In this document: positions 1 to 64,000 of the stretch, piece by piece
Position numbering within the stretch: position 1 is the stretch's first letter
Layout: each line of letters begins with the position of its first letter
Source: Eledone cirrhosa
Taxonomy: Eukaryota
Length of the DNA: 64,000 nucleotides
Assembly: GCA_964016885.1 (NCBI GenBank)
Contig: OZ024743.1
Span: forward strand, 373,860,001-373,924,000
Direction of reading: 5' to 3'
Program-made: the position numbers and the translations under genes
The notes under the pieces: model-generated
Told to the model about the DNA's origin: nothing
The model's input: only the letters and a program-made list of their open reading frames with translations
Databases searched by the model: none

Positions 1-3000
1 ACCAACTATACCAAGAGGGTGTACCAACATACCATTATTAACTACCAATTATACCAAGAGGGTGTACCAACATAATATTATTAACTACCAATTATACCAA
101 GAGGGTGTACCAACATACTATTATTAACTACCAATTATACCAAGAGGGTGTACCAACATACCATTATTAACTACCAACTATACCAAGAGGGTGTACCAAC
201 ATACCATTATTAACTCCCAACTATACCAAGAGGGTGTACCAACATACTATTATTAACTCCCAACTATACCAAGAGGGTGTACCAACATACCATTATTAAC
301 TACCCACATACCAAGAGGGTGTACCAACATACCATTATTCACTACCAATTATATCAAGAGGGTGTACCAACATACCATTATTAACTACCCACATACCAAG
401 AGGGTGTACCAACATAACATTATTAACTACCAACTATACCAAGAGGGTGTACCAACATACCATTATTAACTACCAATTAAACCAAGAGGGTGTACCAACA
501 TACTATTATTAACTACCCACATACCAAGAGGGTGTACCAACATACTATTATTAACTACCAATTATATCAAGAGGGTGTACCAACATACCATTATTAACTC
601 CCAACTATACCAAGAGGGTGTACCAACATACCATTATTAACTACCAACTATACCAAGAGGGTGTACCAACATACTATTATTAACTCCCAACTATACCAAG
701 AGGGTGTACCAACATACCATTATTAACTACCAACTATACCAAGAGGGTGTACCAACATACCATTATTAACTCCCAACTATATCAAGAGGGTGTACCAACA
801 TACCATTATTAACTACCAATTATACCAAGAGGGTGTACCCACATACTATTATTAACTCCCAACTATACCAAGAGGGTGTACCAACATACCATTATTAACT
901 ACTCACATACCAAGAGGGTGTACCAACATACCATTATTAACTACCCACATACCAAGAGGGTGTACCAACATACCATTATTAACTACCAACTATACCAAAA
1001 GGGTGTACCAACATACCATTATTAACTCCCAACTATACCAAGAGGGTGTACCAACATACCATTATTAACTACCCACATACCAAGAGGGTGTACCAACATA
1101 CCATTATTAACTACCAACTATACCAAGAGGGTGTACCAACATACCATTATTAACTACCAATTATACCAAGAGGGTGTACCAACATAATATTATTAACTAC
1201 CAATTATACCAAGAGGGTGTACCAACATACTATTATTAACTACCAATTATACCAAGAGGGTGTACCAACATACCATTATTAACTACCAACTATACCAAGA
1301 GGGTGTACCAACATACCATTATTAACTACCAATTAAAACAAGAGGGTGTACCAACATACTATTATTAACTACCCACATACCCAGAGGGTGTACCAACATA
1401 CCATTATTAACTCCCAACTATAACAAGAGGGTGTACCAACATACTATTATTAACTACCAATTATATCAAGAGGGTGTACCAACATACCATTATTAACTCC
1501 CAACTATACCAAGAGGGTGTACCAACATACCATTATTAACTACCAATTATACCAAGAGGGTGTACCAACATAATATTATTAACTACCAATTATACCAAGA
1601 GGGTGTACCAACATACTATTATTAACTACCAATTATACCAAGAGGGTGTACCAACATACCATTATTAACTACCAACTATACCAAGAGGGTGTACCAACAT
1701 ACCATTATTAACTCCCAACTATACCAAGAGGGTGTACCAACATACTATTATTAACTCCCAACTATACCAAGAGGGTGTACCAACATACCATTATTAACTA
1801 CCCACATACCAAGAGGGTGTACCAACATACCATTATTCACTACCAATTATATCAAGAGGGTGTACCAACATACCATTATTAACTACCCACATACCAAGAG
1901 GGTGTACCAACATACCATTATTAATTACCAACTATACCAAGAGGGTGTACCAACATACCATTATTAACTACCAATTAAACCAAGAGGGTGTACCAACATA
2001 CTATTATTAACTACCCACATACCAAGAGGGTGTACCAACATACTATTATTAACTACCAATTATATCAAGAGGGTGTACCAACATACCATTATTAACTCCC
2101 AACTATACCAAGAGGGTGTACCAACATACCATTATTAACTACCAACTATACCAAGAGGGTGTACCAACATACTATTATTAACTCCCAACTATACTAAGAG
2201 GGTGTACCAACATACCATTATTAACTACCAACTATATCAAGAGGGTGTACCAACATACCATTATTAACTCCCAACTATATCAAGAGGGTGTACCAACATA
2301 CCATTATTAACTACCAATTATACCAAGAGGGTGTACCAACATACTATTATTAACAACCAACTATACCAAGAGGGTGTACCAACATACCATTATTAACTAC
2401 CCACATACCAAGAGCGTGTACCAACATACCATTATTAACTACCCACATACCAAGAGGGTGTACCAACATACCATTATTAACTACCAACTATACCAAAAGG
2501 GTGTACCAACATACCATTATTAACTCCCAACTATACCAAGAGGGTGTACCAACATACCATTACTAACTACCCACATACCAAGAGGGTGTACCAACATACC
2601 ATTATTAACTCCCAACTATACCAAGAGGGTGTACCAACATACCATTATTAACTACCAACTATATCAAGAGGGTGTACCAACATACCATTATTAACTCCCA
2701 ACTATATCAAGAGGGTGTACCAACATACCATTATTAACTACCAATTATACCAAGAGGGTGTACCAACATACTATTATTAACAACCAACTATACCAAGAGG
2801 GTGTACCAACATACCATTATTAACTACCCACATACCAAGAGCGTTTACCAACATACCATTATTAACTACCCACATACCAAGAGGGTGTACCAACATACCA
2901 TTATTAACTACCAACTATACCAAAAGGGTGTACCAACATACCATTATTAACTCCCAACTATACCAAGAGGGTGTACCAACATACCATTACTAACTACCCA

Positions 3001-6000
3001 CATACCAAGAGGGTGTACCAACATACCATTATTAACTACCAACTATACCAAGAGGGTGTACCAACATACCATTATTAACTACCAATTAAACCAAGAGGGT
3101 GTACCAACATACTATTATTAACTACCCACATACCAAGAGGGTGTACCAACATACTATTATTAACTACCAATTATATCAAGAGGGTGTACCAACATACCAT
3201 TATTAACTCCCAACTATACCAAGAGGGTGTACCAACATACCATTATTAACTACCAACTATACCAAGAGGGTGTACCAACATACTATTATTAACTCCCAAC
3301 TATACCAAGAGGGTGTACCAACATACCATTATTAACTACCAACTATACCAAGAGGGTGTACCAACATACCATTATTAACTCCCAACTATATCAAGAGGGT
3401 GTACCAACATACCATTATTAACTACCAATTATACCAAGAGGGTGTACCAACATACTATTATTAACTCCCAACTATACCAAGAGGGTGTACCAACATACCA
3501 TTATTAACTACTCACATACCAAGAGGGTGTACCAACATACCATTATTAACTACCCACATACCAAGAGGGTGTACCAACATACCATTATTAACTACCAACT
3601 ATACCAAAAGGGTGTACCAACATACCATTATTAACTCCCAACTATACCAAGAGGGTGTACCAACATACCATTATTAACTACCCACATACCAAGAGGGTGT
3701 ACCAACATACCATTATTAACTACCAACTATACCAAGAGGGTGTACCAACATACCATTATTAACTACCAATTAAAACAAGAGGGTGTACCAACATACTATT
3801 ATTAACTACCCACATACCCAGAGGGTGTACCAACATACCATTATTAACTCCCAACTATAACAAGAGGGTGTACCAACATACTATTATTAACTACCAATTA
3901 TATCAAGAGGGTGTACCAACATACCATTATTAACTCCCAACTATACCAAGAGGGTGTACCAACATACCATTATTAACTACCAATTATACCAAGAGGGTGT
4001 ACCAACATAATATTATTAACTACCAATTATACCAAGAGGGTGTACCAACATACTATTATTAACTACCAATTATACCAAGAGGGTGTACCAACATACCATT
4101 ATTAACTACCAACTATACCAAGAGGGTGTACCAACATACCATTATTAACTCCCAACTATACCAAGAGGGTGTACCAACATACTATTATTAACTCCCAACT
4201 ATACCAAGAGGGTGTACCAACATACCATTATTAACTACCCACATACCAAGAGGGTGTACCAACATACCATTATTCACTACCAATTATATCAAGAGGGTGT
4301 ACCAACATACCATTATTAACTACCCACATACCAAGAGGGTGTACCAACATACCATTATTAACTACCAACTATACCAAGAGGGTGTACCAACATACCATTA
4401 TTAACTACCAATTAAACCAAGAGGGTGTACCAACATACTATTATTAACTACCCACATACCAAGAGGGTGTACCAACATACTATTATTAACTACCAATTAT
4501 ATCAAGAGGGTGTACCAACATACCATTATTAACTCCCAACTATACCAAGAGGGTGTACCAACATACCATTATTAACTACCAACTATACCAAGAGGGTGTA
4601 CCAACATACTATTATTAACTCCCAACTATACCAAGAGGGTGTACCAACATACCATTATTAACTACCAACTATATCAAGAGGGTGTACCAACATACCATTA
4701 TTAACTCCCAACTATATCAAGAGGGTGTACCAACATACCATTATTAACTACCAATTATACCAAGAGGGTGTACCAACATACTATTATTAACAACCAACTA
4801 TACCAAGAGGGTGTACCAACATACCATTATTAACTACCCACATACCAAGAGCGTGTACCAACATACCATTATTAACTACCCACATACCAAGAGGGTGTAC
4901 CAACATACCATTATTAACTACCAACTATACCAAAAGGGTGTACCAACATACCATTATTAACTCCCAACTATACCAAGAGGGTGTACCAACATACCATTAC
5001 TAACTACCCACATACCAAGAGGGTGTACCAACATACCATTATTAACTACCAACTATACCAAGAGGGTGTACCAACATACCATTATTAACTACCAATTAAA
5101 CCAAGAGGGTGTACCAACATACTATTATTAACTACCACATACCAAGAGGGTGTACCAACATACCATTATTAACTCGCAACTATACCAAGAGGGTGTACCA
5201 ACATACTATTATTAACTACCAATTATATCAAGAGGGTGTACCAACATACCATTATTAACTCCCAACTATACCAAGAGGGTGTACCAACATACCATTAATA
5301 ACTACCAACTATACCAAGAGGGTGTACCAACATACCATTATTAACTACCAACTATACCAAGAGGGTGTACCAACATACCATTATTAACTACCAACTATAC
5401 CAAAAGGGTGTACCAACATACAATTATTAACTACCAATTATACCAAGAGGGTGTACCAACATACTATTATTAACTACCAATTATACCAAGAGGGTGTACC
5501 AACATACCATTATTAACTACCAACTATACCAAGAGGGTGTACCAACATACCATTATTAACTCCCAACTATACCAAGAGGGTGTACCAACATACTATTATT
5601 AACTCCCAACTATACCAAGAGGGTGTACCAACATACCATTATTAACTACCCACATACCAAGAGGGTGTACCAACATACCATTATTCACTACCAATTATAT
5701 CAAGAGGGTGTACCAACATACCATTATTAACTACCCACATACCAAGAGGGTGTACCAACATAACATTATTAACTACCAACTATACCAAGAGGGTGTACCA
5801 ACATACCATTATTAACTACCAATTAAACCAAGAGGGTGTACCAACATACTATTATTAACTACCCACATACCAAGAGGGTGTACCAACATACTATTATTAA
5901 CTACCAATTATATCAAGAGGGTGTACCAACATACCATTATTAACTCCCAACTATACCAAGAGGGTGTACCAACATACCATTATTAACTACCAACTATACC

Positions 6001-9000
6001 AAGAGGGTGTACCAACATACCATTATTAACTACCAATTATACCAAGAGGGTGTACCAACATACCATTATTAACTACCCACATACCAAGAGGGTGTACCAA
6101 CATACCATTATTTACTACCCACATACCAAGAGGGTGTACCAACATACCATCATTAACTACCACTTATACCAAGAGGGTGTACCAACATACTATTATTAAC
6201 TAACAATTATACCAAGAGGGTGTACCAACATACTATTATTAACTACCAACTATACCAAGAGGGTGTACCAACATACCATTATTAACTACCCACATACCAA
6301 GAGGGTCTACCAACATACCATTATTAACTACCAATTATAACAAGAGGGTCTACCAACATACCATTATTAACTACCAATTATACCAAGAGGGTGTACCAAC
6401 ATACCATTATTAACTACCAACTATACCAAGAGGGTGTACCAACATACCATTATTAACTACCAACATACTATTATTAACTACCCACAAACCAAGAGGGTCT
6501 ACCAACATACCATTATTAACTACCCACATACCATGAGGGTGTACCAACATACCATTATTTACTACCCACATACCAAGAAGGTCTACCAACATACCATTAT
6601 TAACTACCCACATACCAAGAGGGTCTACCAACATACCATTATTAACTACCAATTATAACAAGAGGGTCTACCAACATACCATTATTAACTACCAATTATA
6701 CCAAGAGGGTGTACCAACATACCATTATTAACTACCAACTATACCAAGAGGGTGTACCAACATACCATTATTAACTACCAATTATACCAAGAGGGTGTAC
6801 CAACATACCATTATTAACTACCTACATACCAAGAGGGTGTACCAACATACCATTATTAACTACCCACATACAAAGAGGGTGTACCAACATACCATTATTA
6901 ACTACCAACTATACCAAGAGGGTGTACCAACATACCATTATTAACTACCGATTATACCAAGAGGGTGTACCAACATACTATTATTAAATCCCAACTATAC
7001 CAAGAGGGTGTACCAACATACCATTATTAACTACCCACATACAAAGAGGGTGTACCAACATACCATTATTAACTACCGATTATACCAAGAGGGTGTACCA
7101 ACATACCATTATTAACTACCGATTATACCAAGAGGGTGTACCAACATACTATTATTAACTCCCAACTATACCAAGAGGGTGTACCAACATACCATTATTA
7201 ACTACCCACATACAAAGAGGGTGTACCAACATACCATTATTAACTACCAACTATACCAAGAGGGTGTACCAACATACCATTATTAACTACCCACATACCA
7301 AGAGGGTGTACCAACATACCATTATTTACTACCCACATACCATTATTAACTACCAATTATACCAAGAGGGTGTACCAACATACTATTATTAACTACCAAT
7401 TATACCAAGAGGGTGTACCAACATACTATTATTAACTACCAACTATACCAAGAGGGTGTACCAACATACCATTATTAACTACCAACTATACCCAGAGGGT
7501 GTACCAACATACCATTATTAACTACCAATTATATCAAGAGGATGTACCAACATACCATTCTTAACTCCCAACTATACCAAGAGGGTGTACCAACATACCA
7601 TTATTAACTACCAACTATACCAAGAGGGTGTACCAACATACCATTATTAACTACCAACTATACCAAGAGGGTGTACCAACATACTATTATTAACTCCAAA
7701 CTATACCAAGAGGGTGTACCAACATACCATTATTAACTACCAACTATACCAAGAGGGTGTACCAACATACTATTATTAACTCCCAACTATACCAAGAGGG
7801 TGTACCAACATACCATTATTAACTACCAACTATACCAAGAGTGTGTACCAACATACCATTATTAACTACCAACTATACCAAGAGGGTGTACCAACATACT
7901 ATTATTAACTACCAATTATACCAAGAGGGTGTCCCAACATACCATTATTAACTACCAACTATACCAAGAGGCTGTACCAACATACTATTATTAACTACCC
8001 ACATACCAAGAGGGTGTACCAACATACCATTATTAACTACCAACTATACCAAGAGGGTGTACCAACATACTATTATTAACTACCCACATACAAAGAGGGT
8101 GTACCAACATACCATTATTAACTACCCACATACCAAGAGGGTCTACCAACATACCATTATTAACTACCAATTATACCAAGAGGGTCTACCAACATACCAT
8201 TATTAACTACCAATTATACCAAGAGGGTGTACCAACATACCATTATTAACTACCCACATACAAAGAGGGTGTACCAACATACCATTATTAACTACTTACA
8301 TACCAAGAGGGTCTACCAACATACCATTATTAACTACCCACATACCAAGAGGGTCTACCAACATTCCATTATTAACTACCAACTATACCAAGAGGGTGTA
8401 CCAACATACTATTATTAACTACCCACATACCAAGAGGGTCTACCAACATACCATTATTAACTACCCACATACCATGAGGGTGTACCAACATACCATTATT
8501 AACTACCCACATACCAAGAAGGTCTACCAACATACCATTATTAACTACCCACATACCAAGACGGTCTACCAACATACCTTATTAACTACCAATTATAACA
8601 AGAGGGTCTACCAACATACCATTATTAACTACCAATTATACCAAGAGGGTGTACCAACATACCATTATTAACTACCAACTATACCAAGAGGGTGTACCAA
8701 CATACCATTATTAACTACCAATTATACCAAGAGGGTGTACCAACATACCATTATTAACTACCTACATACCAAGAGGGTGTACCAACATACCATTATTAAC
8801 TCCCCACATACCAAGAGGGTGTACCAACATACCATTATTAACTACCCACATATAAAGAGGGTGTACCAACATACCATTATTAACTACCAACTATACCAAG
8901 AGGGTGTACCAACATACCATTATTAACTACCGATTATACCAAGAGGGTGTACCAACATACTATTATTAACTCCCAACTATACGAAGAGGGTGTACCAACA

Positions 9001-16076: not shown

Positions 16077-16121
16077 AACGGTGGTGATGACAGCTAATAA
16101 GCAAGAAACTAGTTCATCGTT
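16077..16121 (+). ncRNA. degenerate type I hammerhead (core GUGAUGA), homologue of the 17327 HHR
   Basis: AACGGUG-GUGAUGA-CAGC uaauaa GCAA-GAAA-CUAG-UU-CAUCGUU. Stem I is 7 bp and C3 is mutated. The module 16070-16380 is homologous to 17327-17635. Confidence 0.6.
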
Positions 16122-16464
16122 CCTTTGTCAGTGTTGAACAGAAGGGCAACGATGGTTGCCGAACACTGTACGGTTTAATTCGGGCTGTTTGTTTACAAAC
16201 AAACCGAACATTATAATAAATGTTCGGTAAACCCATACGTACATATATATATATATATGTGTGCATGTGTGTATATATATACATACTACTGTACGTCTGT
16301 ATACATATATGTATGTACGTATACATACTTATATTTAGGTATCAGCCGTACTAAGAGTGAGAAATGGAATTTCATTTTTTCCATGTATATATATAACATA
16401 TGCAATATACTTATGTTAAGCGTGAGGGGCATGGGTGGTAATGTTTCAATAGTTGTTCCTACTT

Positions 16465-16632
16465 TTGGCACAAGGCCAGCAATTACCCAGTGTATTACTG
16501 GTACTTTATTTTATCGACCCCCGTAAGGATGAAAGGCAAAGTTAACCTCGGCGGGATTTGAACTCAGTCCGTAAAGGGACGTAACTGTGCTGCAAAGCAT
16601 GGCGTCCGACCCTCTACCGTTACTGCCAATCC
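16465..16632 (-). mobile_element. tRNA-derived SINE (Meta/LF-SINE-like central domain)
   Basis: The minus strand shows an A-box-like TGGCAGTAACGG, a B-box GAGTTCAAATCC, then GCCTTTCATCC...GGGTCGATAAAATAAAGTACCAG. Further copies lie at ~20075, ~20402 and ~35905. Confidence 0.8.
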
Positions 16633-16886: not shown

Positions 16887-17026
<140 letters not shown>

Positions 17027-17233
17027 TAAGTATGTACACGTACATACATATATGTATACCGACGTACAGTAGTATGTATATATATATATACATACATGCA
17101 CACATATATATATGCACGTATGGATTCACCGAACATTTATTATAATGCTCGGTGTGTTTGTAAACAAACATCCCGTATTAAGCCGTAGTGTCTAGCAACC
17201 ACCGTTGCTCGTTTGTTCAACACTGACAAAGGA

Positions 17234-17276
17234 ACGCTGTACTAGTTTCAAGCTTGTTAGCTATCGTCAGCAACGT
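17234..17276 (-). ncRNA. type I hammerhead ribozyme (mirror copy in the palindrome)
   Basis: Reverse complement of 17327-17369. Confidence 0.82.
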
Positions 17277-17326
17277 ATACCTTCCTGCCAGATTGTTGAA
17301 CGTTCAACAATCTGGCAGGAAGGTAT

Positions 17327-17369
17327 ACGTTGCTGACGATAGCTAACAAGCTTGAAACTAGTACAGCGT
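17327..17369 (+). ncRNA. type I hammerhead ribozyme
   Basis: ACGUUG-CUGACGA-U AGC uaacaa GCU U-GAAA-CUAG-UA-CAGCGU. Stem I is 6 bp, stem III is the palindrome CUAG and the triplet is GUA. Confidence 0.82.
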
Positions 17370-17632
17370 TCCTTTGTCAGTGTTGAACAAACGAGCAACG
17401 GTGGTTGCTAGACACTACGGCTTAATACGGGATGTTTGTTTACAAACACACCGAGCATTATAATAAATGTTCGGTGAATCCATACGTGCATATATATATG
17501 TGTGCATGTATGTATATATATATATACATACTACTGTACGTCGGTATACATATATGTATGTACGTGTACATACTTATATTTAAGTAACAGCCGTACTAAG
17601 AGTGGGAAATGAAATATCGTTTCATTTTTTCC

Positions 17633-17666
<34 letters not shown>

Positions 17667-17700
17667 GTATATATATATACATATATATATATAATGTATA

Positions 17701-17791
<91 letters not shown>

Positions 17792-17967
17792 ATGTATATA
17801 TGTATATATATATATACGTATCTATATATATATGTATATATATATACGTATATATATATATATACGTATATATATATACACACATATATATATGTGTATA
17901 TATATATATATATGTATATATACATGTATATATATATATATATATGTATATACGTATATATATATAT

Positions 17968-18084
17968 ATAGGAACCAGTAAGACCCCGACAGCTGAGCTC
18001 AAGCCGTTTCGACGGCTAATTCTAGTCCAGAATTAGCCGTCGAAACGGCTTGAGCTCAGCTGTCGGGGTCTTACTGGTTCCTAT
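17968..18084. repeat. perfect 56-bp inverted repeat with a 5-nt loop, centred on a hammerhead stem II
   Basis: The loop AGTCC is at 18024-18028. The right arm reads GCCGUC-GAAA-CGGCU ugagcuc AGCUG-UC-GGGGUC, which is the 3' half of an HHR. Confidence 0.88.
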
Positions 18085-18160
18085 TACCCACTCTACTACC
18101 TCAAGTATTGAGTACTTTGGTGCGTTATGGTCCACCTGGTTCCTTACCACATTTCCTTCG

Positions 18161-18207
<47 letters not shown>

Positions 18208-18353
18208 TGTGTGTATATATATATAGACACACATATATATATATACATATATATACGTATATACATATATATATACATGTATATATACATACATATATAT
18301 ATATATATACACATAAATATATATATATGTATGTATATATATATATATATACG

Positions 18354-18433
<80 letters not shown>

Positions 18434-20006: not shown

Positions 20007-20061
<55 letters not shown>

Positions 20062-20401
20062 TAATAATAATAATTGTTTCTACTTTTGGCACAAGGCCAG
20101 GAATTATCCCAGTGTATTAATGGTACTTTATTTCGTCGACCCCGTATAATAATAATAATAATAATAATGGTTTCTTTATTGGCCACAAGGGCTTTATATA
20201 TTAATAATAGTAATAATGATTATTGCTTTTATTTGCCTCAAGAGCACCAATTGAGGAGACACGGCAAAGACAAATTACATAGTGTAAATAAATAAATAAA
20301 TAGATAAATAAATAAATAAATAAATAAATAAAATTTGAAGTGTATATATATATGTACACATACACATACATGTATGTTTAAATACATACATATATATAAT
20401 T

Positions 20402-20566
20402 GTTTCTACTTTTGGCACAAGGCCAGCAATTATCCCAGTGTATTACTGGTACTTTATTTTATCGACCCCGTAAGGATGAAAGCAAAGTTAACCTTGGCGG
20501 GATTTGAACACAGAATGGAAAGGGCCGTAACTCTATGTGTCAAAGTATGGCGTCCGACATTCTACC
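20402..20566 (-). mobile_element. tRNA-derived SINE copy
   Basis: Closely similar to 16465-16632. A shorter fragment lies at 20075-20145. Confidence 0.78.
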
Positions 20567-20844
20567 GAATGACCCTGTGATAAACATGCGAAACTCCGGG
20601 GTAACAAGACTCCATATTTAGCCTTAATATAACTGAATATTAAAACCCTACTCCGGTTTTGAGTACTCCATTCCCTCAGCCGTCAACCACATTCGATATA
20701 TATATAGAGATAGAGAGAGAGAGAAAAAGAATTAGAAATATGTACATATACACATACATATGTTTAAAAACATACACACACACACACATATATGTATATG
20801 TATTCATATATATATATACATACACATGCATATATTTACACACA

Positions 20845-51496: not shown

Positions 51497-52105
51497 ATGT
51501 CACCAGTTGGTGTTACTGGTAACATGTATCCCAGTACAACCTGTCCCATGGTGGGATCGTTGGCGACTAAACTGGCAACCCCAACAAGGTTTCTTGGTGA
51601 GGAGGGTGACTTTGGACATCCTGCAGGACTAAAAACAAAACCTGTCAAAGGGCAAAGGAGCTCTTAAGAGTCAATGGCCATCCAAAATCACCGGGAGAGA
51701 TGACCCCTTAGCCTTTGTCAAGGCAGAATTCTAGGAGAAGGAAAACTCTGATATAACACCTGCAACCCTGATGGTATCCAATGATGTTGACTTGTTCTTC
51801 TTTATGGTAAATATCATCTTGGTTAAGAGAGTGGGACTGGCTTTGTGCAGTGCCTTTGCTTACTATAAAAGCTTCACGGCACAGGCATTGCTTTATATCT
51901 GGAGATCTCTCTGCACTTGTCGTCATATGGTACCATGGGCCCAGCACTATGTGTCAATAATTGTCACAGGTGTAGTGTTTGTACCAGAGTTTTCAAGTCG
52001 TTGCCTGGACTAAAAAGTCACACTCGTTCAGCGCATAGGTAGGGGTTCTCCTACATGGATTTAAAGTAGTGGCCGTACTCGAAAACGAGTTGGCAGCCAC
52101 CATGT
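51497..52105 (+). mobile_element. RTE-derived non-autonomous element (bipartite SINE-like)
   Basis: GCCTTTGTCAAGGC..CTAGGAGAAGGAAAACTCTGATATAACACCTGC and GAGAGTGGGACTGGC..GCACAGGCATTGC match the RTE 5' UTR. The 3' tail is RTE-like. Confidence 0.85.
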
Positions 52106-52337
52106 ATTTATGTATGTATAATTACATCGCAGTATTGACTATCGTAACGTATGCAGTATAGGATACAAATAAAATTCAAATATGGGCAACTACATTGAGG
52201 CTTGGAGACAATAAACGAGTGGAAAATGCAAACAAGTAAAACAACATGGACATGCTGGTCATCAGCTGTCACTCATTGGATACAGTTTCGCATATCTCTG
52301 AACAGGACTATATATATACGTATATTATGTTGTTCTC

Positions 52338-52428
<91 letters not shown>

Positions 52429-53494
52429 GTATATGTGTGCTCTCACTGACATGTACTCACACATATACTCTCACACAGACTATTTCTCCTTTACTTCATT
52501 TCACCCTATTCCTCTTTTTCTATCTATCTGTTCGTTTGCTTTCCCATCTATTCTGTTCTTTCCATCACTGCCTTTCATCCTCTCACTCATCCCTGCCACC
52601 TTACATTCTTCTCTCTTTCCATACCTTATTATTATCCCCATGTAGAGTTACTTTTTATCTCTCTATATCTTTCCCCGCTTTTACTTATATCTTCATCTCT
52701 TTGCCTATCTTATTCTCTCGCTTTTTCCTTTTTGCTCCTCCACTCGCTAACCACCCTTCTTTCTCCCCCCATATGTCTATCTCCCCTCTCTCACTTTATC
52801 TCTCATTTCTCCGTCTGTCACACATTGTATATATGTCTATCCCTCCTCGCTCTCATCTATATATCTTTTTACTTTTTACTCTTCCACTCATTAACCATCC
52901 TTCTTTCTCTCTCTCCCTCTCGCCTTCATTTTCGCTTTACCTCTCCTTTCTCTCTCTCTCACACACATTGTATATGTCTATCTACCCCCTCTCTCTCTCT
53001 CTATATATATACCTTTTTATTTGTTCTACCACCACTACTATCGTCACCACCACAACTATCATCATCACCACTACAAATAGCACCAATACCACCACCATCA
53101 GTAATACCATCACAAACACCCCCACCTCTCACACACAGTATATATGTCTATTTACCCCCCTCTCTTACTCTATCTACCTTTTTACTTGTTCTCTTCCTTC
53201 TTTAGTCTTAAACCATTTATCCAGTCTCTGCTTCCTCTCTTTCTAACCGACTATTTTCCTGTCTTTCTTTCCATTTATATTTTCGTTCTCACTCTCTTCT
53301 CTCTATGCATATATTCTCTCTTTCCCTCTCCCCCACTCTCTTTGTTTCTTCTTGCACACACACACACTCACACACACACACACTCACACACACACACACA
53401 CACACACAAACAGATGTTTCACCTATTTTTCTTCATACCCTTTCACCCATTATATGTATATAATATATATATAATCTGTCTACCTGTCTCACAC

Positions 53495-56400
53495 CGTCTC
53501 TCCATCTCTGAGTCTCTCTCTCTCTCTCTCTCTTCTGAGTCTCTCTCCCCAACTCTTCTGAGTCTCTCTCTCCATCTCTGAGTCTGTCCCCCAATCTCTG
53601 GGCATGCCTGCCCCCCCAGCTCTGGGCCTGTCCTTCCATCTCTGGGTCTGTCCCCCCATCTCTGAGTCTGTTCCCCCATCTCTGAGCCTGTCTCTCCATC
53701 TCTTTCCTATCCCCCCATCTCTGCGCCTGTCTCTCCATTTCTGAGCCTGTCCCCCAATCTCTGAGTCTGTCCCTCCATCTCTGAGCCTGTCCCACCATCT
53801 CTGAGTCTGTCCCGCCATCTCTGGGCCTGTCTCTCCATTTCTGAGCCTGTCCCTCCATCTCTGAGTCTGTCCCTCCATCACTGAGTCTGTCCCCCCATCT
53901 CTGAATCTGTCACCCCATTTCTGAGACTGTCGCCCCATCTCTGAGACTGTCCCTCCATCACTGAGTCTGTCCCCCCATCTCTGAGTCTGACCCCCATCTC
54001 TGGGTCTCTCTCTCCATCTCTGAGTCTCTCTCTCCATCTCTGGGTCTCTCTCTCAATCTCTGAGCCTGTCTCTCCATCTCTTAGTCTGTCACCCCATCTC
54101 TGAGCATGTCCCCCCCTCTCTGAGCCTGTCTCGCCATCTCTGAGTCCCTCTCCCCATCTCTGGGTCTCTCCCTCCATCTCTGAGTCTCTCCACCCATCTT
54201 CAAGTCTCTCCCTCCATCTCTTCTGAGTCTGTCTCCCCATCTCTGAGTCTCTCCCTTCATCTCTGAGTCTGTTCCCCTATCTCTGGGTCTGTCCCCCATC
54301 TCTGAGTCTCTCTCTCCATCTATGAGTCTGTCTCCCCATCTCTGAGTCTCTCTCTCCATCTCTGAGTCTCTCCCTCCATCTCTGAGTCTCTCCCTCCATC
54401 TTTGAGTCTCTCCCGCCATCTCTTCTGGGTCTGTCTCCCCATCTCTGAGTCTCTCCCTCCACCTCTGGGTGTGTTCCCCCATCTCTGAGTCTCTCCCTCC
54501 ATCTCTGGGTCTGTCGTCCCCCCATCTCTGAGTCTGTCCCCCCATCTCTGGGTCTCTCTCTCCATCTCTGAGTCCCTCTCCCCATCTCTGGGTCTCTCCC
54601 TCCATCTCTGAGTCTCTCCACCCATCTTCAAGTCTCTCCCTCCATCTCTTCTGAGTCTGTCTCCCCATCTCTGAGTCTCTCCCTTCATCTCTGAGTCTGT
54701 TCCCCTATCTCTGGGTCTGTCCCCCATCTCTGAGTCTCTCTCTCCATCTATGAGTCTGTCTCCCCATCTCTGAGTCTCTCTCTCCATCTCTGAGTCTCTC
54801 CCTCCATCTCTGAGTCTCTCCCTCCATCTTTGAGTCTCTCCCGCCATCTCTTCTGGGTCTGTCTCCCCATCTCTGAGTCTCTCCCTCCACCTCTGGGTGT
54901 GTTCCCCCATCTCTGAGTCTCTCCCTCCATCTCTGGGTCTGTCGTCCCCCCATCTCTGAGTCTGTCCCCCCATCTCTGGGTCTCTCTCTCCATCTCTGAG
55001 TCTCTCTCTCCATCTCTGGGTCTCTCTCTCAATCTCTGAGCCTGTCTCTCCATCTCTTTCCTATCCCCCCATCTCTGAGCCTGTCTCTCCCTCCATCTCT
55101 GAGTCTCTCCCTCCATCTTTGAGTCTCTCCCGCCATCTCTTCTGGGTCTGTCTCCCCATCTCTGAGTCTCTCCCTCCACCTCTGGGTGTGTTCCCCCATC
55201 TCTGAGTCTCTCCCTCCATCTCTGGGTCTGTCGTCCCCCCATCTCTGAGTCTCTCCCTCCATCTCTGAGTCTCTCTCTCTCCATCTCTGAGTCTCTCTCT
55301 CCATCTCTGAGTCTCTCTCTCCATCTCTGAGTCACGCCCCCATCTCTGAGTCTGTCTCCCCATCTCTGGGTCTGTCCCTCCATCTCTGAGTCTCTCTCTC
55401 CATCTCTGAGTCTCTCTCTCCATCTCTGAGTCTGTCTCCCCATCTCTGAGTCTCTCTCTCCATCTCTGGGTCTGTCCCTCCATCTCTGAGTCTGTCTCCC
55501 CATCTCTGGGTCTGTCCCTCCATCTCTGAGTCTCTCCCCCATCTCTGGGTCTGTCCCCCCATCTCTCAGTCTGTCTCCCCATCTCTGAGTCTCTCTCTCC
55601 CTCTCTGGGTCTGTCCCCCCATCTCTCAGTCTGTCTCCCCATCTCTGAGTCTCTCTCTCCCTCTCTGGGTCTGTCCCCCCATCTCTGGGTCTGTCCCTCC
55701 ATCTCTGGGTCTGTCCCTCCATCTCTGAGTCTCTCTCTCCCTCTCTGAGTCTCTCTCTCCATCTCTGAGTCTCTCCCCCCATCTCTGAGTCTCTCCCCCA
55801 TCTCTGAGTCTCTCCCCCATCTCTGAGTCTGTCTCCCCATCTCTGAGTCTCTCTCTCCATCTCTGAGTCTCTCCCCCATCTCTGAGTCTCTCCCCCATCT
55901 CTGAGTCTGTCTCTCCATCTCTGAGTCTCTCCCCCCATCTCTGAGTCTCTCCCCCATCTCTGAGTCTGTCTCCCCATCTCTGAGTCTGTTTCTCCATCTC
56001 TGAGTCTCCCCCCCATCTCTGAGTCTGTCTCCCCATCTCTGAGTCCCTCTCTCCATCTCTGAGTCTCTCTCTCCATCTCTGAGTCTCTCCCCCATCTCTG
56101 AGTCTGTCTCTCCATCTCTGAGTCCCTCTCTCCATCTCTGAGTCTCTCACCCCATCTCTGAGTCTCTCCCCCATCTCTGAGTCTGTCTCCCCATCTCTGA
56201 GTCCCTCTCTCCATCTCTGAGTCTCTCCCCCATCTCTGAGTCTGTCTCCCCATCTCTGAGTCTGTTTCTCCATCTCTGAGTCCCCCCCCCCCCCATCTCT
56301 GAGTCTCTCCCCCATCTCTGAGTCTGTCTCCCCATCTCTGAGTCTGTTTCTCCATCTCTGAGTCCCCCCCCATCTCTGAGTCTGTCTCCCCATCTCTGAG

Positions 56401-57172
56401 TCCCTCTCTCCATCTCTGAGTCTCTCCCCCCATCTCTGAGTCTCTCCCCCATCTCTGAGTCTGTCTCTCCATCTCTGAGTCTCTCTCCCCATCTCTGAGT
56501 CTCTCTCCCCATCTCTGGGTCTCTCTCCCCATCTCTGGGTCTGTCTCCCCCTCTCTGAGTCTCTCTCTCCATCTCTGAGTCTCTCTCCCCATCTCTGAGT
56601 CTCTCCCCCATCTCTGAGTCTCTTCCCCCATCTCTGAGTCTGTCTCCCCATCTCTGAGTCTCTCTCTCCCTCTCTGGGTCTGTCCCCCCATCTCTGGGTC
56701 TGTCCCTCCATCTCTGGGTCTGTCCCTCCATCTCTGAGTCTCTCTCTCCCTCTCTGAGTCTCTCTCTCCATCTCTGAGTCTCTTTCTCCATCTCTGAGTC
56801 TCTCCCCCCATCTCTGAGTCTGTCTCCCCATCTCTGAGTCTCTCTCTCCATCTCTGAGTCTCTCTCTCCATCTCTGAGTCTCCCCCATCTCTGAGTCTCT
56901 CCCCCCATCTCTGAGTCTGTCTCCCCATCTCTGAGTCTCTCTCTCCATCTCTGAGTCTCTCTCTCCATCTCTGAGTCTCCCCCATCTCTGAGTCTCTCCC
57001 CCCATCTCTGAGTCTGTCTCCCCATCTCTGAGTCTCTCTCTCCATCTCCGAGTCTCTCTCTCCGTCTCTGAGTCTCTCTCTCCCTCTCTGAGTCTCTCTC
57101 TCCATCTCTGAGTCTCTCCCCCCATCTCTGAGTCTCTCCCTCCATCTCTTCTGAGTCTGTCTCTCCATCTTT
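53495..57172. repeat. degenerate ~19-21-bp CT-rich minisatellite (CCATCTCTGAGTCTCTCTC)
   Basis: Read directly. Internal ~430-bp block duplications lie around 54130-55000. Confidence 0.95.
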
Positions 57173-57404
57173 GATTGTCTGTTTGTTTGTCTGCCCCGGT
57201 CCCTCCACCAGTGTGTGTCAGTCTCTCCATTTCTCCTAGTCTGTCTCTCTGTCTGTTTATCTCTCCCTGTCTCGGTCTCTCTGTCAGTCTATCAGTCTCT
57301 CCATCACTGTAAGGCTCCACTATGGTATAACACACAATCCTCTTCATCTTAGACTGGGTGCCACAGTCCTTGTCTGACAACACTAACAACATCCCTGAAA
57401 AACC

Positions 57405-59960
57405 ACAACCAACTCCATCACCACCACTACTACCACCACCACTACCACCACTACTACCACCACAACTATCACCACCAACACCCATACACCACAACCATCA
57501 CCACCCCACTACCAACACCACCACCACCTCTACTACCACCACCACCACCAGCACACCAACCATCACCAACAACACCCACCCACCACCACCATCACCACTA
57601 CCACCACCACCACCACCACCACCACCACCACCACCACCACCACCACCACCAACAGCAACAACAGCAACAATAACAATACCAACAACAGCAACAATAACAA
57701 TACCACTAACAACAACAATAGTAACAACAGCAATAATAACAACAGTAATAATTTCAGTAGCAACAACAATAACAACAGTAACAACAGTAGTAACAACATC
57801 TAAAACAACAACAGTAACAGTATCACTAACAACAATAACAACGGTAACAACATCAACAACTGTAACAGCAGTAACACCAACAGTAACAACAACAGTAACA
57901 ACAACAGTAACAACAACAGTAACAACAACAGTAACAACAACAGTAACAACAACAGTAACAACAACAACACCAACAGTCACAACTTTAACAATACACAGTA
58001 TTAACACGAATAACAACAACAACAGTAACAACAACAGTAACAACAACAGTAACAACAACAGTATCAACGACAATAACAACAACAGTAACAACAACAGTAA
58101 CAACGACAATAACAACAACAGTAAGAACAACAGTAATAAAACAACAACAACAGTAACAACAACAGTAACAACAACAGTAACAACGACAATAACAACAACA
58201 GTAAGAGTAACAACGACAATAACAACAACAGTAAGAACAACAGCAATAAAACAACAACAACAGTAACAACAACAGTAACAACAACAGTAACAACGACAAT
58301 AACAACAACAGTAAGAACAACAACAATAAAACAACAACAACAGTAACAACAACAGTAACAACGACAATAACAACAACAATAACAACAACAGTAACAACGA
58401 CAATAACAACAACAGTAAGAACAACAGCAATAAAACAACAACAACAGTAACAACAACAACAGTAACAACAAGAGTAACAACAGTAAGAACAACAACAATA
58501 AAACAACAACAACAGCAATAACAACAGTAACAACAACAGTAACAACAACAGTAAGAACAACAACAATAAAACAACAACAACAGTAACAACAACAACAGTA
58601 ACAACAAGAGTAACAACAGTAAGAACAACAACAATAAAACAACAACAACAGCAATAACAACAGTAACAACAACAGTAACAACAACAGTAAGAACAACAAC
58701 AATAAAACAACAACAACAGTAACAACAACAGTAACAACAACAGTAACAACAACAACAATAAAACAACAACAACAGTAACAACAACAGTAACAACAACAGT
58801 AACAACGACAATAACAACAACAGTAAGAACAACAGCAATAAAACAACAACAACAGTAACAACAACAGTAACAACAACAGTAACAACGACAACAACAACAC
58901 CTGTAAGAACAACAGCAATAAAACAACAACAACAGTAACAACAACAGTAACAACGACAACAACAACACCTGTAAGAACAACAGCAATAAAACAACAACAA
59001 CAGTAACAACAACAGTAACAACGACAACAACAACACCTGTAAGAACAACAACAATAAAACAACAACAGTAACAACAACAGTAACAACGACAACAACAACA
59101 CCTGTAAGAACAACAGCAATAAAACAACAACAACAGTAACAACAACAGTAACAACGACAACAACAACACAATAAAACAACAACAGTAACAACGACAACAA
59201 CAACACCTGTAAGAACAACAGCAATAAAACAACAACAACAGTAACAACAACAGTAACAACAACAGTAACAACGACAATAACAACACCTGTAAGAACAACA
59301 GCAATAAAACAACAACAACAGTAACAACAACAGTAACAACAACAACAGTAACAACAAGAGTAACAACAGTAAGAACAACAACAATAAAACAACAACAACA
59401 GTAACAACAACAGTAACAACAACAGTAACAACAACAGTAACAACAACAAGAGTAACAACAGTAAGAACAACAGCAATAAAACAACAACAACAGTAACAAC
59501 AAGAGTAACAACAGTAAGAACAACAGCAATAAAACAACAACAACAGTAACAACAACAGTAACAACGACAGTAACAACAACAGTAACAACGGCAACAACAA
59601 CACCTGTAAGAACAACAACAATAAAACAACAACAACAACAGTAACAACAACAGTAACAACAACAGTAACAACGACAATAACAACACCTGTAACAACAACA
59701 GCAATAAAAGTACAATAACAACATCAACAGTAACAGCAACAATAACGACACCTGTAATAAAACAATAACAGTAACAACAACAATAACAACAACATTATCA
59801 ACAATAACATCAACAGTGACAACAACAATATGAACAGTAACAACAGTAACAACATCAATGCTAACAGTAACAATATCAACAGCAATAACAACAATAACAA
59901 CAACAGTAATAACATCATCATCATCATCATCATCACCATCATAGTTATCAGCAGCAACAG
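57405..59960. repeat. (CCA)n followed by a complex (AAC)-based tandem array
   Basis: AACAACAGT, AATAAAAC and ACCTGTAAG subunits recur. Confidence 0.93.
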
Positions 59961-60312
59961 CAATATAAGCAAACGAGGTTCATTTACCAACACGTCCATA
60001 CAGCTTCTCTCATTCCGACACACCAAAGGTAGGCTGACACTCTCTCTCTCTTTCTCTCTCTATCACACTCTTTCTCACGCACTCACTCACTCTAACACAC
60101 ACACACTCTCTCTCCACACACACACACTCTCTCTCTCCACACACACACACTCTCTCTCTCCCCACACACACACGCTATCACTTTCTCTCGTTCTTTCTCA
60201 CGCACACCCTCTCTCTGTCACGCACACACACTCTCTCTTTTACACACACGTTCTCCACTTTCTAACACACACACTCTCTAACACACACTCTCTCTCACAC
60301 TTTCCCCGCTTG

Positions 60313-60388
<76 letters not shown>

Positions 60389-60740
60389 CTCTCTCTCGCA
60401 CTATTGCTTTCCCTCGTTCTTTCTCACGCACACCCTGTCTCTGTCATATACACACCCTATTTTCCACGCACCTCCTCTTCTCTTTCTTTCTCACACACAC
60501 CCTCTCTCACTTTCACACATACCCGTCTCCGTCTTTCATAATTTCTTTCTCCCCTCTCTCTCTCACACACACTCCCACACACACTCTCTCTCTCGCTCTC
60601 TTAAAAATCCTCTCTCTTTCTGTCATACTCTATCATTCACACTTTTTCTCAATGTTTCTAATCTGAGACTCCTCCTCTTCCCCTCCTCTTCACCTCCTCC
60701 TCCTTCACATTCAATTGTGTGTGTCTATACATCTGTCTCT

Positions 60741-60805
<65 letters not shown>

Positions 60806-61894
60806 CCTCATTCCATCTACTTTATTTTCTCTCACCCAATCTCCTTTCCTTGATCCTTTACTTTCTCTCCCTTCTCACTACCAGTTCTCTCTCTCCCTGC
60901 TAGTTTCACTCTCTCCATTTACAAGTTTCTTTTTCTTCCTTTCTCTCTTTAACCATTTACCCCTCTCTTTTTACCAATTTCCCCCCTCTCTCTATATATC
61001 ACTCTCACTCTCTCCTTTTTTCTCTTCACCCTTTCACCCTCTCTAAACTACATTCTAATTTACACTTCGTCTTTCCTCCTCCTCTTTTCCTCCACCTCTC
61101 TCTCTATCTATCACCCTTCTCTGTTAACTCTCTCTCCTTTTCTCTCCCTTCTCTCTCATTCTCTCTCCTCTCTCTCAACTCCTCTCCCCTCTCCTCTCTC
61201 TCATTCTCTCTCTATATATTTCTATATTTTTCTCTCTCTCTGTCTACTTTGTCTTTTATTTATACATACATTTCTTCCTCTCACTTCCCCTCTCTATATT
61301 TCTCTACATTTCTCTCCCCCATCTCTCTCCTTCCCTGGGTCTCTTCCTCTTTCTCTCCACATTATTATATATTTCTCACTCTTTCGGCCATTATTTCCTC
61401 CCACTCTCACCCAATAACTCCGCCTATCTCTTACACTCTAAAAAATAGCAGAAAAAAAACGCAAGATACATATTGGACAATGTAATGTTAAAATATACTG
61501 GATAGTCACTGTTGGAACGGCTAGACAACAATAACAACAATTCTCTCTATCTATCTAGTTCTTCTCTGTTCGCATCTTCTCTCCCAGCAATCTCTCTCCG
61601 TATCTCTCTCTCTGTCCGTATCTCTCTCTCTCTCTCCGTATCTCTCTCTCTTTCCGTATCTCTCTCTCGCTCTCTCTCTCTCTCTATCTAGCTCTTTCCC
61701 ACCCACACTTTCTCTCCCAGCAACCTCTCCTCTATTCCTATATATCATTAGCCCCTTTCCCCCCTACTCTCCCTATCTCTCCTCATACTGTCCCCTTCAT
61801 CTATATTATACGTACATTTATCACAACCCCTTGAATCTTTCTCTCTCTCTCCTCTCTCTCCTCGTTCCCCTCTCACCCCCTATCTCCTCATCTC

Positions 61895-61956
<62 letters not shown>

Positions 61957-62064
61957 TATCTGTCTCTCTCATATACAGAGAGAATCGAGTTACACTCCAC
62001 TCAGATTTAAACCTACACTTAGAGACATCCACTCTTACAACAACAGCAAAGCCAACAGCAACCA

Positions 62065-63990
62065 AACAACCACCACCACTACCACCACCACCACCACCAC
62101 CACCACCACCACCACCACAACTACCACCACCACCACCACCACCACCACCACCACCACTACCACCACCACCACCACCACCACCACCACCACCACCACCATC
62201 ATAACCACCACCATCACCACCACCACTACCACCACTACCACCACCACCACCACCACCACCACCACCACCACCACCACCACCATCACCACCATCACCACCG
62301 CCACCACCACCACCGCCACCACCACCATCACCACCATCACCACCACCACAATCACCACCATCATCAACACCACCACCACCATCACCACCATCACCACCAC
62401 CACCACCATCAACACCGCCACCACCACCACCACCACCGCCACCACCACCACCACCACCATCACCACCACCATCACAACCACCACCACCACCACCACCACC
62501 ACCGCCACCACCACCACCAACACCACCACCACAATCACCACCACCACCACCGCCACCACCACCACCACCACCACCACCACCACCACCGCCACCACCACCA
62601 CCACCACCACCGCCACCACCACCACCACCACCACCACCACCACAATCACCACCACCAACACCACCACAATCACCACCACCACCACCGCCACCACCACAAC
62701 CACCATCACCACCACCACCACCACCACCACCACCATCACCACCACCACCACCACCGCCACCACCACCACCACCACCACCGCCACCACCACCACCACCACC
62801 ACCGCCACCGCCACCACCACCACCACCACCACCACCACCACCACCACCATCACCACCACCACCGCCACCGCCACCACCACCACCACCACCGCCACCGCCA
62901 CCACCACCACCACCACCACCGCCACCGCCACCACCACCACCGCCACCACAATCACCACCACCACCACCACCACCACCACCACCACCACCACCACCACCAC
63001 CACCACCGCCACCGCCACCACAATCACCACCACCACCACCACCACCACCACCACCACCACCGCCACCGCCACCACAATCACCACCACCACCACCACCACC
63101 ACCACCACCACCACCACCACCACCACCATCACCACCACCACCGCCACCGCCACCACCACCACCACCACCACCACCACCACCACCACCACCACCACCGCCA
63201 CCACCACCGCCACCGCCACCACCACCACCACCACCACCACCACCACCACCACCACCGCCACCGCCACCACCACCACCACCACCGCCACCGCCACCACCAC
63301 CACCACCACCACCGCCACCGCCACCACCACCACCGCCACCACAATCACCACCACCACCACCACCACCACCACCACCACCACCGCCACCGCCACCACAATC
63401 ACCACCACCACCACCACCACCACCACCACCACCACCGCCACCGCCACCACAATCACCACCACCACCACCACCACCACCACCACCACCACCACCACCACCA
63501 CCACCACCGCCACCGCCACCACAATCACCACCACCACCACCACCACCACCACCACCGCCACCGCCACCACAATCACCACCACCACCACCACCACCACCAC
63601 CACCACCACCACAATCACCACCACCACCACCACCACCACCACCACCACCACCACCACCACCACCACCACCGCCACCGCCACCACAATCACCACCACCACC
63701 ACCACCACCACCACCGCCGCCATCACCACCACCACCATCACCACCACCACCGCCACCGCCACCACAATCACCACCACCACCACCACCACCACCACCACCA
63801 CCACCACCACCACCACCACCACCACCACCGCCACCGCCACCACAATCACCACCACCACCACCACCACCACCACCGCCGCCATCACCACCACCACCATCAC
63901 CACCATGATCATGTTAATAATCATCATCATCCTAATCACCACCGTCATCATCATCCCCTTCTTCCTCCTCCTTCTCCTCATTATCATCAT
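62065..63990. repeat. (ACC)n trinucleotide array with GCC/ATC interruptions
   Basis: Read directly from the sequence. Confidence 0.95.
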
Positions 63991-64000
63991 CACCAACTAC

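Follow-up and report, generated by a model that had tools for sequence, protein, structure and literature searches.

The window analysed here, a stretch of 64,000 nucleotides from Eledone cirrhosa, contains a perfect 56-bp inverted repeat (arms 17968-18023 and 18029-18084) with a 5-nt loop, AGTCC, at its apex, and the question raised by this locus is how the inversion was made. In a preliminary description, drawn from the letters of the window, it was attributed to a cDNA that had copied through stem II of a hammerhead ribozyme, snapped back and primed itself there, and it was regarded as a trace of how the inverted ends of Penelope-like insertions arise. The repeat with its AGTCC apex was present as described, as were GAAA, stem III, GUC and GGGGUC downstream of the apex, with the cut after 18064. 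The inversion is also made anew at insertion and does bear on the origin of inverted ends, but the mechanism proposed for it was wrong.

The insertion and its parent element

Just two complex perfect inverted repeats of at least 20 bp (loop of at most 30) were found in the window, and the hairpin is one of them. The whole insertion spans positions 17968 to 18164 and is embedded in (TA)n. Searches of the 3.0-Gb genome returned 3,970 exact copies of a 56-nt piece and 13,875 head-to-head sites with arms 8 to 38 nt apart, and the reversed control returned 0 in each case. A chance origin of the hairpin was excluded because thousands of copies were obtained against none for the reversed controls. 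The window hairpin is one of about 14,000 head-to-head (TA)n insertions of a Hydra-clade Penelope-like element.

Positions within the element were numbered on its RNA, with +1 set at the A in window position 18024, which places the hammerhead cut after +41; two internal start sites were named T1 (+61) and T2 (+141). The inverted arm (17968 to 18023, minus strand) corresponds to RNA +61 to +6 and is the perfect reverse complement of 18029 to 18084. The apex loop (18024 to 18028, plus strand) holds RNA +1 to +5, with a putative capped start at 18024 as judged from a wall of arm ends at +1/+2, an extra G and the position of a TATA-like box. The sense arm (18024 to 18164, plus strand, RNA +1 to +141) matches the full unit at locus L062. 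Within it lies the 3' half of a type I hammerhead (18034 to 18069, plus strand), composed of the 3' strand of stem II (18034-18041), GAAA (18042-18045), stem III with a palindromic loop (18046-18062), U16.1-C17 (18063-18064, with the predicted cut at 18064/18065) and the 3' strand of stem I (18065-18069). At window position 18061 (+38), C is the usual base in the wider family, so that stem III has a G-C pair there in place of G-U. The 80 nt from T1 to T2 (18085 to 18164, plus strand) form the Penelope 'tail', and TAT closes both sites. The insertion is flanked by (TA)n-rich target on the left (17633 to 17967), a target type common to nearly all copies seen, and, judged from its sequence, on the right (18165 to 18430).

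The parent element was found as a tandem array with a period of 3,543 bp (L061 to L063). Its single ORF encodes about 720 aa, counted from the initial Met, and reverse transcriptase and GIY-YIG endonuclease motifs (YRDD and VIY...YIG) were recognized in it by motif reading; a Pfam search of the ORF gave 0 hits, and the assignment rests on the motifs. The array and the inverted arms with their T1 and T2 ends reproduce the tandem/inverted pLTR organization of EN+ Penelope-like elements, including the tail at one end. Features given for the Hydra clade (PMC8557442) were also present, namely a C-terminal GIY-YIG-like domain, RWR (for RWK) and DKT in the ORF, a CxCx5C linker, no CCHH, and CxxC and CxH around the E and N (all three read by eye), a hammerhead in the pLTR, a (TA)n target and an inverted copy plus tail. 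Unlike the elements of that paper, which are generally below 3 kb with tails of 30-40, the unit here exceeds 3 kb, a size trait that is descriptive rather than strict, the tail is 80 nt long, and the family is dominated by palindromes of about 200 bp. By its motifs, which match the definition, the element would belong to the Hydra clade, and together with intact pLTR copies these ORF motifs bear out the preliminary assignment to a Penelope-like insertion with a hammerhead. The type of element and its inverted-plus-tail layout are known; the footprints at the apex and their reading are apparently new within the open-access literature searched.

In L063, where the T2 tandem array meets the T1 arm, a 55-bp piece of the ORF is repeated about 65 times in tandem (5171-8742), a stretch that resembles a very long templated insert. 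The family was also detected in run X5, from a second organism, in four contigs with the same T2 end into TA repeat, a weak indication given so few contigs.

Intact pLTR copies read, in order, stem I, a U3-A8 core, a bulged stem II, a 37-nt loop II, GAAA, stem III with its palindromic loop, UC and stem I. The type I core boxes and stems I to III are present in the lowest-energy fold of an intact copy, in which the three-way junction was obtained but scored no better than shuffles (z 0.04); some copies end at the cut. The U3-A8 core is a described hammerhead variant, and the motif shares with other Penelope hammerheads the type I form, covariation at U3-A8, a long bulged stem II and a palindromic loop III (PMC4209133); unlike those, it has a stem III of 5-6 bp, and its 37-nt loop II holds TATA-like and initiator motifs. 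Because the natural stem II is bulged and has so long a loop, the perfect 13-bp 'stem II' of the window is half natural strand and half the mirror image created by the inversion. The natural 5' strand reads GA(T)CGGCTA, and the apex is not centred on stem II, as had been claimed, but lies inside loop II, 10 nt upstream of the stem II 3' strand. The hammerhead 5' half is indeed missing from the window, where the mirror image replaces it, although the native core is TTGAGAA and not the CTGANGA of the preliminary description. Intact copies had been expected to read ACCCC-CTGANGA, and they read ACCCC-TTGAGAA; a lack of CTGANGA upstream of the hairpin had been named as a refutation, and it was literally observed, yet only because the core is the known U3-A8 variant. 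A genome-wide search for CTGANGA gave 0 matches and was uninformative, its gap limit of 36 being 1 nt below the real 37-nt loop, and an Rfam search of the window gave no match at the gathering score for the half motif.

Other repeats of the window were recorded alongside. A second family with the same layout occupies 17021-17635 (related copy at 16078-16390), with a perfect 281-bp zero-loop palindrome, a tail of about 50 nt and a (TA)n target; no hammerhead was noticed in it, and its 12 genome matches have the apex motif in common and arms of variable length. Further perfect palindromes on or beside TA runs were seen in the flanks of L031, L033, L040, L049 and L059, and several repeat families may insert in palindromic fashion at TA runs. 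Dispersed-repeat copies with a tRNA box-B-like motif (families D12, D14, D16 and D18) lie at 16431-16620 and 20052-20570, and we take these to be SINE-like. The long stretches at 1-8000 and 52000-64000 have a strong, constant strand skew and are probably satellite or simple repeats.

Arm ends and junctions

A set of 90 loci was picked by the sense arm alone, without regard to the apex. Sixty-six of these were parsed as short inversions and 3 more were recognized by eye, 16 run on into the natural sequence upstream, 4 are joined directly to TA and 1 is of another kind. For arm statistics, 190 loci yielded 153 distinct T1 arms, 134 of them at sites with both arms; 24 apex-selected sites were dropped and 110 distinct two-arm sites were used, including rows mis-parsed at substitutions (L098, L147, L169, L175 and L186). 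The first 30 loci had been chosen for likeness to the window's junction and were excluded from all counts. The parsed sites come mostly from the first 100 Mb of contig C1 and from the youngest subfamilies.

The outer ends of the insertions are fixed. By exact extension, the inverted arm ends at +61 in 54 of the 66 short inversions, the others stopping at substitutions and one at +64, and 7,635 exact TA-plus-arm ends of this arm were counted genome-wide. In 88 of the 90 loci the sense arm gives way to TA repeat at about +141, and in 2 it continues into the ORF. Both sites end in TAT, and the TAT at +85 and +105 were not seen as arm ends in the parsed junctions. No T1/T1 pair was present among 71 T1-selected arms (53 of them had a +141 arm within 340 bp, and for 18 none was found), and no T2/T2 pair among the 66 inversions selected by the sense arm. 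Long insertions have the same T1/T2 pair of ends as the short palindromes, and loose TA ends at +61 and +141 occur in contigs of other runs, which may include the assembled sample. The junctions differ from copy to copy, the window's own being found in 2 of the 66 inversions of the apex-independent set; among the 110 sites, microhomology was present at the junction in 36 and inserts in 49, and many inserts of at least 6 nt are copies of nearby sequence.

Both arms end within -5 to +11 in 77 of the 110 sites, with peaks of arm ends at +1/+2 and +5 to +7 and a small group at -4 to -2. A tabulation of apex positions had been suggested in the preliminary description, and the positions are strongly non-random as anticipated there, except that the apex tracks the putative RNA 5' end and not a stem. 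A TATA-like box begins at -29 of intact copies; +1 coincides with the A in a match to YYANWYY, and -4 with that in a match to TCAKTY, both of which we take to be initiator consensus motifs. Across +1 the contig depth of run X1 falls by a factor of about six, in data that may include the assembled sample.

The native base just before +1 is T. Of the 16 arms that end at +1 with at least two inserted bases, 13 have C as the first extra base of the cDNA, equivalent to G in the RNA, against 13 of 72 arms ending at other positions (Fisher P = 3e-6), and the same extra C was found in 5 of 6 arms ending at +6. This extra C occurs on both arms in L084, L087, L097 and L113, the last of which is a zero-loop join. 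The usual cause of an extra G at an RNA 5' end is a copied cap; no paper was found that supports cap copying by a retrotransposon polymerase. A counter-indication is that among 100 listed sites of an unparsed genome-wide list the base before +1 is G in 46, C in 48 and A in 6, a tally in which a cap and the partner arm are inseparable and in which the C class may reflect either the partner arm or a subfamily. Sites with both arms reaching +1 number 2,377 and, by inspection rather than formal count, are dominated by arms ending at -2 to -5. A 3' splice site at the AG (+1/+2 and +6/+7) was considered and rejected, since the arms keep the AG and there is no fixed upstream exon. Most arms likely stop where a capped transcript begins, from a promoter inside hammerhead loop II, and window position 18024 would be that start.

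A second wall lies at +42. Both arms end at +42/+43, the first bases of the hammerhead 3' product, in 4 of the 110 sites. Genome-wide, a +42/+42 joint with a single A or T was found at 57 sites against 1 for +43/+43, which equals its reversed control. The +41/+41 control gave 33 sites and is confounded, its middle base being native on one arm; its matches show that joins at +39 to +42 without new bases are also common. A search for apices at about +30 to +46 returned 298 matches, and the 97 listed were sorted by eye: 21 are 42/42 joints separated by non-native bases, 8 pair an end at +42 with one at +43 to +46 and contain an insert, 27 join at C41/G42 with zero insert and are fitted equally well by CG microhomology, 15 join in palindromic loop III, 2 have inserts and ends at other symmetric places, and 24 are mixed. 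A 42/42 joint with four bases between was also present in run X2, which may include the assembled sample. The extra bases at +42 are mostly A/T, unlike those at +1. Most simply, the ribozyme would cut read-through RNA in vivo, and the 3' product would sometimes serve as template. An RNA starting at +1 is unable to cut itself because it is without the hammerhead 5' half, so that only a downstream copy on read-through RNA could do so.

The ends of the two arms of a site are correlated. Ends at +41 to +43 were found on both arms in 4 sites and on the T1 arm alone in 0 (4/0/2/104, Fisher P = 3e-6, n = 110), and ends at -5 to -2 on both arms in 5 (5/5/1/99, Fisher P = 1e-5, n = 110); the subfamily marker T38C is on both arms in 8 sites and on one arm in 1 (n = 87). 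We infer that both arms were probably copied from one RNA, while paired ends could be mimicked in part by source loci or periods with their own RNA pools.

Routes to the palindrome

The reading that we prefer, with a probability of roughly three in four, is that the element protein nicks both strands of the target, that one RNA is copied twice to its 5' end, from +61 and from +141, and that the two cDNAs are joined. Briefly, both strands of the (TA)n target would be nicked, a single RNA would be primed at the two sites, the second cDNA displacing the first, and each cDNA would run off the RNA 5' end. Transcripts capped at +1 inside loop II (with minor starts near -4 and +6) would supply most templates and leave the extra G, whereas the 3' product of hammerhead self-cleavage (+42) would supply a few percent and leave the extra A/T. 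A template jump or host end-joining would then unite the new 3' ends of the two cDNAs into a palindrome that has the 80-nt tail on one side, and priming in a downstream copy of T1/T2 on read-through RNA would give the long inverted and tandem insertions. In the window, the inverted arm is likely the cDNA primed from a top-strand nick at T1 and the sense arm likely that primed from a bottom-strand nick at T2.

The reach of the arms bears on every reading in which a single cDNA folds back. The T1 arm extends further 5' than the T2 arm in 45 of the 110 sites, less far in 39 and equally far in 26, whereas in a simple snap-back the inverted arm can never reach further 5' than the sense arm; at L064 a T1 arm of about 5 kb stands beside a T2 arm of 0.83 kb. 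Fold-back of a long cDNA is not supported because of these 45 sites and of the extra G on both arms, and since each arm often holds sequence that the other lacks, both were most likely copied from RNA, each with its own primer. A related route, in which one cDNA from +141 runs off the RNA end, snaps back near it, copies to +61 and joins the left flank through TAT microhomology, with nicking and repair at the hairpin centre scrambling the apex, would account for the paired ends and shared variants. Snap-back after full-length cDNA has been reported for R2-based insertions (PMC11371274), 17 of the 110 junctions, the window's own among them, fit the route directly, and it agrees with the inserts copied from nearby sequence. 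The mirror class, with the T1 arm longer and no insert, is nevertheless as common (20 of 110), the extra G is carried by the inverted arm or by both, even in the zero-loop join of L113, T1 is fixed despite the other TAT sites, and kilobase T1 arms occur beside short T2 arms; as the main route it is already weak, and we regard it as unlikely. Self-priming in stem II, the model of the preliminary description, is refuted as the main route by the junction table and keeps scarcely any probability. The apex does fall within the stem II/loop II region in most copies, but quite apart from the bulge and long loop of the natural stem the arms stop at +1, about 28 nt short of the 5' strand, and a second apex class lies at +42, away from stem II. 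Both natural strands and loop II should stand at such an apex, and just 1 of the 110 parsed palindromes (L118) retains the 5' strand, with its junction elsewhere than at stem II.

Self-priming on an antisense template is the published reading of rotifer Penelope palindromes of the same structural type (PMC3846280), and zero-loop and short-loop palindromes are common here too; the marks at the apex are nonetheless those of a sense RNA, with the extra G before the sense initiator A and the cut of the sense-strand hammerhead, and for this family that reading appears very improbable. Double priming could also be right and the walls could reflect stalling of the polymerase or hot spots of deletion at RNA or DNA structure instead of true RNA ends, above all at +42, beside the base of stem III and a CG. 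Microhomology does shape the apex, as the zero-insert CG joins and the loop III joins among the 97 listed sites indicate, and the 33 sites of the +41-type pattern are in keeping with hot spots. A stall at stem III is disfavoured because it would copy C41 first, whereas the 57 sites stop one base earlier and add A/T, and the +1 wall lies 10 nt past a stem, in a loop, with an untemplated G; walls of this kind are rather improbable. Finally, a fixed palindromic mini-element copied whole from a MITE- or SINE-like master, or an assembly artefact, was suggested by the best matches to the window, which have its exact junction. Those matches had been selected for that junction, the apex-independent set gave it in 2 of 66 with otherwise varied junctions in place of the constant interior of a MITE, and the same ends and joints recur in contigs of other runs, which may include the assembled sample, so that practically no weight is given to this explanation.

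Comparison with known systems and implications

In LINE-1 twin priming, as Ostertag and Kazazian reportedly proposed in 2001, two cDNAs are primed on one RNA from two nicks in the target, and an inversion results. There each arm derives from a different part of the RNA and the position of the second site is variable, whereas here the arms overlap, both starts are fixed and both arms reach the 5' end. Opposite-strand primers of the L1 type would fit the TA-joined fixed ends on both sides, target duplications being unreadable in (TA)n, but in place of non-overlapping arms on a poly(A)-primed RNA an overlap from +1 to +61 and no poly(A) were found. Retroviral strong-stop DNA is likewise a short cDNA primed near an RNA 5' end, although it is tRNA-primed and is not inserted as a palindrome.

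R2 offers a parallel in the snap-backs and template jumps at its 5' junctions, events at the cDNA 3' end after run-off, but it primes one strand at the RNA 3' end, unlike the two-site priming proposed here (PMC11371274, PMC13000458). Inverted pLTRs with tails are standard for Penelope-like elements, and their origin was called undefined in the Hydra-clade paper, the accessible text of which gives no mechanism for the inversion point (PMC8557442). The Poseidon element of Anolis, as studied in vitro, resembles the present family in that both strands are cut and extended (here a deduction from the arms), the target is AT-rich and two internal starts bound the tail; the sections available from that study do not link the two starts with the two arms of one insertion (PMC11167929). 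The rotifer Penelope inverted pLTRs also have head-to-head repeats, a palindrome at the junction, an optional tail and TATA/initiator-like motifs, but here the evidence favours two primings on a sense template, unlike the antisense self-priming put forward there (PMC3846280). An internal promoter has been described for Drosophila virilis Penelope, and inversions are not treated in the available part of a retrozyme preprint. Within the open-access literature, to which the search was mostly confined, no report was found that connects the apex with a capped start or with the hammerhead cut.

Taken jointly, and with slightly better than even confidence, the fossil insertions would record the 5' chemistry of Penelope-like RNA, namely a copied cap, a promoter in the hammerhead loop and a ribozyme end at the exact cut. 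An inverted pLTR with a tail would then generally be one RNA copied twice from both ends of a break, the polymerase jumping onto its own first cDNA, and the apex would map transcription starts and reveal hammerhead activity in vivo. With the anole Poseidon protein in vitro, hammerhead cleavage was unneeded for insertion and no reads ended at the cut, according to the portions of the report available, whereas insertion ends here fall on the cut and on the likely capped start (PMC11167929).

The formation of inverted ends, the template strand and hammerhead cutting in vivo, for which an absence of evidence in Penelope is stated in PMC4209133, have been described as open (PMC8557442, PMC11167929, PMC4209133, PMC3846280), and about 14,000 independent junctions speak to all three. 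The reading makes predictions at the level of single bases: +1 should be capped, +42 should carry a 5'-OH, and cDNA synthesis should start at +61 and +141. If true, it would provide genomic evidence for hammerhead cleavage in vivo and for the way in which inverted Penelope ends are formed. One retrotransposon can scatter many thousands of near-perfect short palindromes across an animal genome.
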